A stretch of 27,680 nt of DNA from IMG/VR virus record IMGVR_UViG_2684622552_000002; one strand, written 5' to 3'. The stretch comes from a virus (lineage: Duplodnaviria > Heunggongvirae > Uroviricota > Caudoviricetes). Below the pieces are notes generated by a model. It was not told the DNA's origin and did not search any database. It saw only the letters and a list, made by a program, of their open reading frames with translations. Both the position numbers and the translations under genes were made by a program. This document shows positions 1,051 to 7,164 of the stretch, piece by piece. How positions within the stretch are numbered: position 1 is the stretch's first letter; every line of letters starts with the position of its first letter.

Positions 1051-1289
1051 TGGGTAGCATTAACCTGCGTATTGACGATGAACTTAAAGCGCGTTCTTAC
1101 GCCGCGCTTGAAAAAATGGGTGTAACTCCTTCTGAAGCGCTTCCTCTCATGCTCGAGTATATCGCTGACAATGAACGCTTGCCGTTCAAACAGACACTCC
1201 TGAGTGATGAAGATGCTGAACTTGTGGAGATAGTGAAAGAACGGCTTCGTAATCCTAAGCCAGTACGTGTGACGCTGGATGAACTCTGA
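1050..1289 (+). CDS. relB: RelB antitoxin (ribbon-helix-helix), 79 aa
   Basis: Translation MGSINLRIDDELKARSYA...RNPKPVRVTLDEL matches RelB from memory; stop overlaps relE start (TGATG). Confidence 0.9.
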   Translation: MGSINLRIDDELKARSYAALEKMGVTPSEALPLMLEYIADNERLPFKQTLLSDEDAELVEIVKERLRNPKPVRVTLDEL

Positions 1290-1576
1290 TGGCGTATTTT
1301 CTGGATTTTGACGAGCGGGCACTAAAGGAATGGCGAAAGCTGGGCTAGACGGTACGTGAACAGTTGAAAAAGAAGCTGGTTGAAGTACTTGAGTCACCCC
1401 GGATTGAAGCAAACAAGCTCCGTGGTATGCCTGATTGTTACAAGATTAAGCTCCGGTCTTCAGGCTATCGCCTTGTATACCAGGTTATAGACGAGAAAGT
1501 TGTCGTTTTCGTGATTTCTGTTGGGAAAAGAGAACGCTCGGAAGTATATAGCGAGGCGGTCAAACGCATTCTCTGA
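1289..1576 (+). pseudogene. relE: relE toxin gene interrupted by an in-frame amber codon at codon 20 (TAG at 1346-1348)
   Basis: Reads MAYFLDFDERALKEWRKLG then TAG then TVREQLKKKLVEVLESPRIEANKLRGMPDCYKIKLRSSGYRLVYQVIDEKVVVFVISVGKRERSEVYSEAVKRIL; the rest is full-length RelE-like. The ORF track only recovers the downstream part from a TTG. Confidence 0.8.
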
Positions 1577-3603: not shown

Positions 3604-3978
3604 ATGCTCATAGATTTGGTTTTACCTTACCCGCCGACGGTGAACACTTACTGGCGACGCCGTGGCAGCACATATTTTATCTCGGAGGAGGGAAAGCGTT
3701 ATCGCCGGGCTGTGGCGCTTATTGTTCGCCAGCAGCGGCTGAAATTAAGCCTGTCCGGAAGGCTGGCGATAAAGGTGATTGCAGAGCCACCGGATAAGCG
3801 TCGTCGCGACCTGGACAATATCCTGAAAGCACCGCTGGATGCGCTGACGCATGCGGGAGTGTTAATGGACGATGAGCAGTTTGATGAAATCAATATCGTT
3901 CGTGGTCAGCCAGTATCTGGAGGACGTCTGGGGGTGAAGATTTACCCCATAATGCATGAAGAGCAGGTCAAAAAATGA
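3604..3978 (+). CDS. rusA: RusA-family Holliday junction resolvase, 124 aa
   Basis: Translation contains the RusA hallmarks YPPTVNTYW and PDKRRRDLDNILKAPLDALT; stop overlaps Q start (ATGA). Confidence 0.85.
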   Translation: MLIDLVLPYPPTVNTYWRRRGSTYFISEEGKRYRRAVALIVRQQRLKLSLSGRLAIKVIAEPPDKRRRDLDNILKAPLDALTHAGVLMDDEQFDEINIVRGQPVSGGRLGVKIYPIMHEEQVKK

Positions 3979-4796
3979 AACTGGAAGATTTACCGAAATA
4001 CTACTCCCCAAAATCCCCTTGCCTGACCGATGCATCGGCCTCAACGTCAAAAGATGCGCTGAGTATCACTGATGTGATGGCCGCGCAGGGCATGACACAG
4101 AATCGGGCTGAGATGGGGTTTTCTGCGTTCCTGGGGAAAATGGGCATCAGTATGAATGACAGGGCGCGGGCAACAGAATTACTGGCAGATTATGCACTCA
4201 GTCGGTGCGATCGTGTGGCGGCGTTGAGAAAACTTCCGGCAGAAATAAAACCGGTAGTGATGCGCATTATGGCTTCGTACGCTTTTGAGGATTATGCCCG
4301 CAGCGCTGCGAGTAAAAAGCAGTGCCCTTGTTGCTATGGGGAAAAATTTATTGAAAGCGTAGTTTTTACAAACAAGGTCCAGTATCCGGATGGTAAGCCG
4401 CCGGTATGGGCAAAGTGTACGAAAGGTGTGCATCCGTCTTACTGGGAAGAATGGAAAAAAGTCAGGGAGGTGGTAAAAGTTGCCTGTCCGGAGTGTAGCG
4501 GAAAGGGTGAGGTTTCCACCGCCTTTAAGGATTGCCGTGGGCGTGGTGTCGCCATTCACCGTGAAGAGTCGGTAAAACGTGGTATGCCTGTTATCAGAGA
4601 CTGCCAGCGTTGTGGTGGTCGTGGCTATGAAAGACTACTATCAACGGAGGCATTTAATGCTATATGCGAGGTGACAAACCAGATAACACGCGCGTCATGG
4701 GAAAAAACAGTTAAGAAATTCTATGATGCGCTAGTGACCCGGTTTGATATTGAAGAAGCATGGGCTGAGCGGCAGTTAAAAAAGGTAACTAGGTAA
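3975..4796 (+). CDS. quuQ: Late-gene antiterminator Q (Qin/QuuQ-like), 273 aa
   Basis: Position immediately upstream of the late promoter, terminator, tRNAs and lysis genes; multiple CxxC zinc-binding motifs (CPCCYGEKF, CPECSGKGE, CQRCGGRGY). Confidence 0.75.
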   Translation: MKLEDLPKYYSPKSPCLTDASASTSKDALSITDVMAAQGMTQNRAEMGFSAFLGKMGISMNDRARATELLADYALSRCDRVAALRKLPAEIKPVVMRIMASYAFEDYARSAASKKQCPCCYGEKFIESVVFTNKVQYPDGKPPVWAKCTKGVHPSYWEEWKKVREVVKVACPECSGKGEVSTAFKDCRGRGVAIHREESVKRGMPVIRDCQRCGGRGYERLLSTEAFNAICEVTNQITRASWEKTVKKFYDALVTRFDIEEAWAERQLKKVTR

Positions 4797-4939: not shown

Positions 4940-5015
4940 GGCCCTTTAGCTCAGTGGTGAGAGCGAGCGACTCATAATCGCCAGGTCGCTGGTTCAAATC
5001 CAGCAAGGGCCACCA
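4940..5015 (+). tRNA. tRNA with CAU anticodon (tRNA-Ile2/lysidine type or tRNA-Met; ileZ-like)
   Basis: 76-nt cloverleaf: acceptor ggccctt/aagggcc, D-arm tagctcagtggtgagagc, anticodon loop ctCATaa, T-arm ggttcaaatcc, 3' discriminator A then CCA. Confidence 0.85.
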
Positions 5016-5115: not shown

Positions 5116-5192
5116 GCGTTGTTAGTTCAGCCGGACAGAGCAATTGCCTTCTAAGCAATCGGTCACTGGTTCGAATCCAGTACAGCGCGCCA
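5116..5192 (+). tRNA. tRNA-Arg (UCU anticodon; argN/argO-like)
   Basis: 77-nt cloverleaf: acceptor gcgttgt/acagcgc (one G-U), anticodon stem attgc/gcaat with loop ctTCTaa, T-arm ctggttcgaatccag, 3' CCA. Confidence 0.85.
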
Positions 5193-5656: not shown

Positions 5657-6130
5657 ATACATATCTGGATTATCACCTGTTACGGTAAAAAGTGATTGCT
5701 TACTGTTTTTGTGAATGGCATTGCAGCAGCCGGATAATATCAGTGCTGGCTGACGGTGTGCTGGTAGCGGGTGTGGTGGTTGTTGCTTTCCCGTTGCTGA
5801 AAAAGAAAACGCCAGACTGTTAGCCGGGTATTAGTTAGCGGGAGAAATTTTTAAATACTTCACAATTCAGGCGGTTGACTGTTGTCTGGTTTGCGGGGAG
5901 TTTGTTAAAAGAAACTGGCATGGTGAATCCCCCTGTGCGGAGGGGCAATCAGCGAGTAGGTATATGGGATAATCGCGGATTCAGGTGCTGGTACTGAATT
6001 CACCGGGAGGCACCCGGCACCATGCACTTCAATAGATTCTCTCCACATTATGGATATTCTTTCAGAATATCCCACGCAGACTTTGTGTAAATGTTAACAA
6101 ATGTGCGTTTTATTTGATCTGATTCGCTGT

Positions 6131-6189: not shown

Positions 6190-6618
6190 ATGGGTTTTCG
6201 TAGCGCATCAATTCTTATGTTGATTATTAGTGGGATTATTATCGGGTGCACTGATACTGTATCGACAAATTATCATGACCGTACATCATATTACTCCGAT
6301 AAAGCAATAGAGACACAGTATGTGAGTTCATCTGAACGTACTTCTGATGTTAGTGAGGATATCCGTCTGTATGCCCATCAAATCAAGAGCGCCATCGAAA
6401 AACAGTTCGGGGATGCGAGTAAGTATTCAGGAAAAGAGTGTACACTGAGAATGCATATGGCCCCGAATGGCCTTCTACTGGAGGTTAAAAGAGAAAGTGG
6501 AGACCTCGATTTATGTCGTGAAGCGATGAATGCGATAAAGAATGCTGATATACCTGCCCCCCCTTCGCCGGAAGTATATAAAGTATTTCAAAATGGGGTG
6601 CTGGATTTTAAACCCTGA
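6190..6618 (+). CDS. Lipoprotein with TolA C-terminal (domain III)-like domain, 142 aa
   Basis: N-terminus MGFRSASILMLIISGIIIGC-TD is a signal peptide with a lipobox (IIGC; +2 Thr). C-terminal 80 aa (QIKSAIEKQFGDASKYSGKECTLRMHMAPNGLLLEVKRESGDLDLCREAMNAIKNADIPAPPSPEVYKVFQNGVLDFKP) aligns closely, by recall, with the C-terminus of E. coli TolA (QIKSAIESKFYDASSYAGKTCTLRIKLAPDGMLLDIK...IPKPPSQAVYEVFKNAPLDFKP). Confidence 0.8.
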   Translation: MGFRSASILMLIISGIIIGCTDTVSTNYHDRTSYYSDKAIETQYVSSSERTSDVSEDIRLYAHQIKSAIEKQFGDASKYSGKECTLRMHMAPNGLLLEVKRESGDLDLCREAMNAIKNADIPAPPSPEVYKVFQNGVLDFKP

Positions 6619-6768: not shown

Positions 6769-7164
6769 GTGGGATTAAAGAAAATCGTTATGTTGACTTT
6801 TTGGGTCGGTTTTGTTGCGGGATGCACACCTTTACACCCTTCAGATTGCCACAAAACTACTGCTACAGGTAGTTGCAGTTCAGGACGCTGGGATGATCAG
6901 GATGAATGGGGGGCGCAAGCGCGGGGAATCAGAGCTGCAATTAATGCCAAACTTGATGAGCCGCATAACTGGAAAGGGAAAAAATGCAGGTTGCATATGG
7001 AATTCTCTCAGGATGGCACGGCGTTAAAAATATCTACCAGTAACGGTGATAAAGCCTATTGCGAAGCGATAAAGTCCGCAGCTCATAAAGCCAAATTTCC
7101 GGCCTTCAACAATCCGGAAGTCTACAGAGATTTTCAGAAATCTGGCTTTGACATGCGAGGTTAG
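6769..7164 (+). CDS. Second, more divergent TolA domain III-like lipoprotein (paralog), 131 aa
   Basis: GTG start 6 nt after GAGGAG; MGLKKIVMLTFWVGFVAGC-TP signal peptide with lipobox; C-terminal region keeps the same scaffold as lipoprotein 1 and TolA (GKKCRLHM...DG...GD..YCEAIKSAAHKAKFPAFNNPEVYRDFQKSGFD). Confidence 0.75.
   Translation: MGLKKIVMLTFWVGFVAGCTPLHPSDCHKTTATGSCSSGRWDDQDEWGAQARGIRAAINAKLDEPHNWKGKKCRLHMEFSQDGTALKISTSNGDKAYCEAIKSAAHKAKFPAFNNPEVYRDFQKSGFDMRG

Follow-up and report, generated by a model that had tools for sequence, protein, structure and literature searches.

The window analysed here, a 27,680-nucleotide stretch of DNA, carries a Qin-type relB-relE-hokD cluster within an Escherichia fergusonii lambdoid prophage, and we consider it very probable that this cluster records an ordinary, recent death of the relBE module, left non-functional by three private lesions. 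The toxin gene is interrupted by an amber codon, the antitoxin carries an arginine-to-proline substitution (R32P), and the -10 hexamer of the promoter has been lost to a templated replacement. The damage is not confined to the toxin but extends to the antitoxin and the promoter, and so to the entire relBE module. An earlier note on this DNA had described recent inactivation of the toxin beside an antitoxin and operator that are preserved; the inactivation stands but the preservation does not, since RelB R32P and the templated loss of the -10 hexamer lie on the same haplotype.

The window, an IMG/VR record, corresponds to the complete contig JZWN02000008.1 (27,680 bp) of assembly GCA_000968895.2, from E. 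fergusonii GTA-EF03, a ground beef isolate sequenced on the Illumina MiSeq platform at 132x coverage and assembled with SPAdes (PMC4832150). The sequence is an Illumina Nextera draft assembly. All features below lie on the forward strand of the window unless stated otherwise. The window is a lambdoid prophage of full length that includes head and tail genes, with ~97% identity to E. coli prophages across 1634-25000.

Alignment to K-12, which begins at position 128, revealed that positions 128-1890 are collinear with the Qin segment flxA-ydfV-relB-relE-hokD. The cluster shares with the K-12 Qin relBEF operon its gene order, the ATGA overlap of relB and relE, the relO hexads and the flxA and ydfV neighbours, and positions 742-1783 are nucleotide-identical to K-12 save for three events, namely the relE S20amber, RelB R32P and the replacement of the -10 hexamer by a templated 9-mer. 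The window differs from K-12 further in the 3' part of hokD, which from ~1784 is the A46V allele, in the absence of rem and in its full-length prophage. The region is a recombination mosaic: it is K-12 Qin-like up to ~1783, and from 1634 on it corresponds to lambdoid prophages that lack relBE and whose hok carries a full Sok leader. Beyond 1890 similarity to Qin collapses, and an AT-rich stretch stands in place of the K-12 rem gene. A terminator-like GC hairpin followed by a T-run at 1872-1889, also found in K-12, likely marks the end of the relB-relE-hokD transcript.

The relE pseudogene spans 1289-1576. Its ATG at 1289 overlaps the relB stop in the sequence ATGA (1287-1291), and its frame continues to a TGA at 1574-1576, interrupted by the in-frame TAG at 1346-1348 that the earlier note had read as codon 20. 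Alignment to reference loci, which that note had proposed as a check, showed that the lesion is a single C-to-A change at 1347 and that the ancestral codon is the sense codon TCG (Ser), present in 13 of 13 other relBE loci (the K-12-type ER1709, the O26 strain RM10386 and 11 more). The rest of the frame is as complete and conserved as had been supposed: the remaining 94 codons encode exactly the RelE of K-12, the crystallised protein, and with codon 20 repaired the product matches PF05016 and the PDB RelE over residues 1-95. With TAG at codon 20, RelE is terminated after 19 residues and the locus encodes no full-length translatable toxin of the RelE/ParE fold. The public record calls no gene at this position.

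A search with the 60-nt stretch that contains the amber codon found no exact match among the 1,268 E. coli complete-genome records (1,247 genomes) that hold the region. All of these records fell in the 95-99% identity band, and the matches listed were at 98.3%, which corresponds to one mismatch. A 32-mer around the TAG likewise had no exact match in GTDB species representatives or JGI metagenomes. On this distribution the relE amber is a derived change confined to one lineage, which makes it recent, in agreement with the recent inactivation proposed earlier. The literature yielded no useful survey of relE pseudogenes.

The promoter lesion is a templated replacement at 1004-1012, where CTTACACCT stands for the ancestral TGTAGTGCGATA and 12 nt have become 9. 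The ancestral GCATGT-TGTAGTGCGATA-CTTGTAAT accordingly reads GCATGT-CTTACACCT-CTTGTAAT in the window. Read in reverse complement, the nine new bases match exactly the stretch at 1039-1047 (AGGTGTAAG), which lies between the relB Shine-Dalgarno sequence and start codon. The flanking complementary blocks CTTGTAAT/ATTACAAG and CATGT/ACATG were already present in the ancestral sequence, and the ancestral-type locus holds an imperfect inverted repeat with 12-nt arms, CTTGTAATGACA/TGTAATTACAAG, and the outer CATGT/ACATG.

As a result, the window contains a derived perfect palindrome at 999-1052, with 22-nt arms (999-1020 and 1031-1052) around a spacer at 1021-1030, and its right arm contains the Shine-Dalgarno sequence and ATG of relB. 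The inverted repeat extends to 31-nt arms at 90% complementarity, as against the 12-nt arms of the ancestral-type locus, and the computed hairpin energy falls from -5.6 to -16.6 kcal/mol for DNA and from -22.4 to -41.1 kcal/mol for RNA. The site is ancestral in 13 of the 13 other relBE loci compared. Not one of the 1,255 E. coli records (1,234 genomes) that hold the region carries the derived palindrome, nor was it found in any GTDB representative or JGI metagenome.

The event at 1004-1012 bears the classic marks of a quasipalindrome template-switch mutation, and it is these marks that point to the mechanism. The ancestral repeat was imperfect, the inserted sequence is the opposite arm read in reverse complement, and a single event accounts for both the multi-base substitution and the change in length from 12 to 9 nt, giving perfect 22-nt arms; the probability of a chance 9-nt match is ~4^-9. 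Copying of the other arm by the nascent strand, by which the repeat becomes perfect, is documented in E. coli (PMC7202029). In the proposed sequence of steps, a single template switch at replication would have led the nascent strand to copy the opposite arm of the imperfect relO-centred repeat, with the switch occurring between the complementary blocks CTTGTAAT/ATTACAAG and CATGT/ACATG, and the 12 ancestral nucleotides would thereby have been exchanged for the 9-nt reverse complement of the region from the relB Shine-Dalgarno sequence to the start.

The event resembles the quasipalindrome mutations described by Ripley (1982) and by the Lovett laboratory in E. coli thyA and lacZ reporters, in that one complex event makes an imperfect repeat perfect, with new bases that exactly match the reverse complement of the opposing arm and a change in length that follows from the templating. 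It differs from those cases in being a natural allele of a wild isolate and not of a reporter, and, unlike them, it erases a promoter -10 box and truncates the divergent ydfV ORF.

The replaced bases include the GATA of the ancestral hexamer GATACT, and the former -10 position, 1009-1014, now reads ACCTCT. We presume that TTGCCC at 989-994 is the -35 hexamer of PrelBE, a placement that follows from the ancestral spacing; the distance from it to the -10 hexamer position was 17 nt in the ancestral sequence and is 14 nt in the window. Dinucleotide changes that hit the TA or the CT within the -10 box (-10 to -7) abolish PrelBE activity (Overgaard 2009, PMC2812701). With its -10 hexamer overwritten and its spacer cut from 17 nt to 14, and judged by this mutagenesis, which affected the same positions through other substitutions, PrelBE is most likely dead. 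Any read-through transcript arriving from upstream would, moreover, bury the relB Shine-Dalgarno sequence and ATG in a hairpin of ~-41 kcal/mol.

The operator core survives the probable loss of the promoter. The relO core at 1014-1037 consists of the hexads TTGTAA-TGACAT-TTGTAA-TTACAA, identical to those of K-12, for which the motif [A/T]TGT[A/C]A has been defined (Overgaard 2009, PMC2812701). The window keeps the four hexads but probably lacks an autoregulated promoter whose -10 box overlaps relO. The claim that the relO palindrome is intact holds only superficially: the hexads are unchanged, but the long palindrome is itself derived and has replaced the -10 box.

The window retains TGTAAT motifs at 1015-1020 and at 1027-1032, the second with CTTACA 17 nt to its 5' side. 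These motifs might provide weak residual or new promoter activity; the TGTAAT/CTTACA candidate lacks the key A at -11. A consensus promoter scan found nothing in the window, yet it also misses the experimentally mapped PrelBE of K-12, and we set it aside as uninformative.

The same event alters ydfV, the divergent neighbour of relB, which lies on the reverse strand at 723-1025 with a K-12-type start at 1025-1023. Codon 7 of ydfV (1007-1005) has become TAA through the palindrome mutation, so that the remaining ORF, which starts at an internal ATG at 1001, has 92 aa, compared with the 101 aa of YdfV in K-12 and other loci. YdfV had no Pfam match, and we know of no function for it.

The third lesion lies in relB (1050-1289), a full-length 79-aa ORF with a strong Shine-Dalgarno sequence and a full-length family match (PF04221, 108.5 bits). 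It is a RelB-family ribbon-helix-helix (RHH) antitoxin gene directly 5' of the toxin gene, to which it is translationally coupled by the ATGA overlap. Codon 32 (1143-1145) is CCT (Pro) and not CGT (Arg), the changed base being 1144. RelB is identical to PDB 4FXE at 78 of 79 residues, and residue 32 is its only difference from the RelB of 4FXE and 2K29. The substitution lies in helix alpha2 of the RHH domain, and the C-terminal, RelE-binding part of RelB shows no change. The exact R32P protein was found in only three contigs of a 153-billion-gene index, all with the same triple haplotype. The antitoxin that had been called intact is thus whole as an ORF but carries a substitution at a conserved residue that was hit in an autoregulation screen.

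Comparison with laboratory alleles illuminates the probable effect. R32 is a conserved RHH residue and was among those mutated in a screen for autoregulation-defective relB, in which the recovered changes all abolished autoregulation; RHH mutants derepress PrelBE more than 100-fold, the G24P mutant of RelB is hyperlabile, and relB101, likewise in helix alpha2, destabilises RelB (Overgaard 2009, PMC2812701). R32P resembles these alleles as a substitution in helix alpha2 at a residue recovered in that screen, whereas the published ones were selected in the laboratory on plasmids carrying the non-toxic RelE(R81A). By this analogy we infer that the proline set in helix alpha2 would cost RelB its repressor function and possibly its stability too. 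No characterisation of R32P itself was found in the literature.

Downstream, hokD (relF, 1648-1803) is an intact Hok-family toxin ORF of 51 aa (PF01848, 78.6 bits) with a strong Shine-Dalgarno sequence, whose anti-Shine-Dalgarno duplex is computed at -7.4 kcal/mol. The ORF is whole and has its own ribosome-binding site, as previously noted; however, it is an orphan without a Sok/mok leader. The Rfam sok model (RF01794) had no match in 1400-2100, either at the gathering threshold or at E<=10, and a positive control, the relBE-less prophage L006 with the same Hok protein, gave a sok match of 113 bits directly upstream of hok. Judged from these matches, the hokD locus is not a complete type I system.

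In K-12, probes for relB, relE and relF (hokD) detect one full-length transcript, from the relBE promoter (PMC3598666). The hokD gene probably shares the fate of that promoter: because it is without Sok and normally rides the relBE transcript, it has probably been silenced along with relBE.

The differences of hokD from K-12 (1784-1785, 1810 and beyond) were considered as de novo mutations and rejected, as they form a common allele of lambdoid prophage hok genes; the exact Hok protein, the A46V allele, occurs in 7,860 index blocks. The allele is common in lambdoid prophages that resemble the window from 1634 onward, so the differences were gained by recombination. The change at 1784-1785 (codon 46), CT to TC relative to K-12, gives A46V and lies immediately 5' of the Tyr47 codon TAC, which is followed by G (1786-1789). 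The editing context of hokD accordingly reads C-UACG-AA in the window versus U-UACG-AA in K-12. The former is, we presume, the anticodon-loop sequence of tRNA-Arg(ACG). In hokD mRNA, A-to-I editing by TadA recodes Tyr to Cys at position 46 in the numbering of the survey that reports it (bioRxiv 10.1101/2025.08.07.668861). The common A46V allele of hokD might be the better TadA substrate.

Several other readings of the locus deserve consideration. The amber codon could reflect a toxin-only knockout in which functional RelB and its promoter-operator are kept, for example as an anti-addiction or cross-neutralising antitoxin, and the full-length relB ORF with its strong Shine-Dalgarno sequence, the four unchanged relO hexads and the unchanged RelE-binding part of RelB are what such a locus would show. 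This genotype does exist. E. coli MSI001 (NZ_CP076645.1, 1833-2120) carries an independent relE nonsense allele, Q65amber (CAG to TAG), in the same cluster, annotated as 'internal stop'; unlike the window it retains a wild-type promoter and RelB and is a true toxin-only knockout, with an IS3 (3-1569) inserted in ydfV just upstream. Since MSI001 carries this independent allele beside wild-type relB and promoter, relE nulls evidently recur and are tolerated, and loss that begins with the toxin occurs. In the window, however, the -10 hexamer is overwritten and the spacer shortened, and R32P places a structurally severe helix proline at a residue recovered as autoregulation-defective, so that we regard a preserved antitoxin function here as improbable. 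Equally, the sequence itself could be at fault, through a miscalled base at the TAG or a hairpin chimera that made the palindrome, since the source is an Illumina Nextera draft assembly and library artefacts can generate palindromes. Three assemblies, drawn from at least two runs, nevertheless share the identical triple haplotype, and the original coverage was 132x. The TAG is seen in the NCBI contig and in the Logan assemblies of runs SRR1916749 and SRR29133879, which possibly derive from one isolate; because it recurs in the assemblies of two runs and the coverage is high, an assembly error, which the earlier note had asked to be checked, is very unlikely, and an artefactual origin of the haplotype as a whole is extremely so.

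Two further possibilities, both raised in the earlier note, would allow some RelE activity despite the amber codon, and neither found support. Were the TAG decoded as sense, whether through a host amber-suppressor tRNA or through leaky termination, full-length RelE would be made at a low or conditional level; one published account (PMC7918605) proposes that in-frame stops persisting in bacterial genes are read through, and the relE frame past the TAG is still perfect. Against this, an undamaged downstream frame is expected anyway of an allele that is private and recent, the allele occurs in no other genome among the E. coli records, GTDB representatives and JGI metagenomes searched, the window encodes tRNA-Met(CAT) and tRNA-Arg(TCT) but no suppressor tRNA, and the promoter lesion argues against any expression; the chance of conditional expression seems to us very slight. 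Reinitiation at the in-frame TTG at 1364, 15 nt past the TAG, would yield a hypothetical 70-aa ORF (1364-1576, RelE residues 26-95) that keeps the catalytic C-terminal residues, still scores 34 bits against PF05016 and might retain some activity. Yet TTG is a weak start codon, and this one lacks a Shine-Dalgarno sequence: its anti-Shine-Dalgarno duplex of -3.3 kcal/mol equals the median of 3,000 random window positions, as against -7.1 kcal/mol for relB and -7.4 for hokD. The product would cover positions 29-87 of the 89 in PF05016 and lack positions 1-28, about the first third of the RelE/ParE fold, and the promoter lesion applies here too. The 70-aa ORF is probably not expressed, and an active truncated toxin is highly improbable.

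The preferred reading remains the recent decay of the whole module, in which the change of relE Ser20 from TCG to TAG ends RelE after 19 residues. Intermediate haplotypes, which would put the three hits in order, did not turn up: exact-pattern scans of GTDB representatives and JGI metagenomes with the palindrome and the amber 32-mer found none, and a look-up of RelB R32P returned only triple-mutant contigs. A look-up of the FlxA allele returned only wild-type loci; this allele is not lineage-specific, as its SNPs are silent at the protein level.

To gauge the background of private change, we compared the flank with the closest complete E. coli genome, from which the window differs by SNPs at 500, 585, 595 and 741. 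Given a best match of 99.2% over 440-800, no complete E. coli genome has at least three of these, so that the 361-nt flxA-ydfV flank holds 3-4 private SNPs, a private divergence of ~1%. The relBE region holds three private events in 892 nt, all disruptive and none silent. Because the private divergence of the flank is ~1%, these three events are no excess. Positive selection for inactivation was accordingly rejected as an explanation: the number of events per 892 nt is not above the flank, and non-synonymous change in two of two coding events is not significant. The data are consistent with recent neutral decay that set in once a first hit had inactivated the module.

A more eventful history, a compensatory cascade driven by an unguarded Hok toxin and not by independent drift, appears unlikely to us. 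Under such a cascade R32P would have come first and abolished autorepression, flooding the cell with relBE-hokD mRNA that includes the Sok-less hokD; relE and the Sok-less hokD would then have been costly, and selection would have favoured both the promoter-erasing switch and the relE null. If this were true, the quasipalindrome of the operator would amount to a ready-made, one-step 'off switch' for the operon.

With neutral decay as the preferred reading, the locus represents a known system with an ordinary fate, another case of the decay of prophage-borne toxin-antitoxin modules that opens no new question. It is modestly instructive as an apparently clean, natural quasipalindrome template switch in which a single event does away with a -10 box. 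The locus also shows that an intact-looking antitoxin ORF and operator beside a nonsense toxin allele are not functional by default and should first be compared with reference alleles; in this locus, what stood out as an 'operator palindrome' turns out to be the mutation that most likely killed the promoter.

Several further observations concern the prophage outside the cluster. Positions 1-127 are the 3' end of an IS3-family element, 100% identical to E. coli sequences annotated 'IS3 family transposase'. This end abuts Qin-like sequence ~60 nt from the flxA stop, and the contig terminates inside the IS; the early region of the prophage is either interrupted by the element or simply unassembled. 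The genes for tRNA-Met(CAT) and tRNA-Arg(TCT), at 4940-5015 and 5116-5192, lie just 3' of a Q-like antiterminator gene (3975-4796), the usual place for tRNA genes in Stx-type lambdoid phages. Positions 5889-6079, in the late-region leader of the prophage, strongly match the Rfam sRNA family STnc100 (RF02076, 114 bits). The adjacent ORFs at 6190-6618 (142 aa) and 6769-7164 (131 aa) are both assigned to PF06519 (TolA) in public-record annotations, and tandem TolA-like genes are unusual in a prophage late region.
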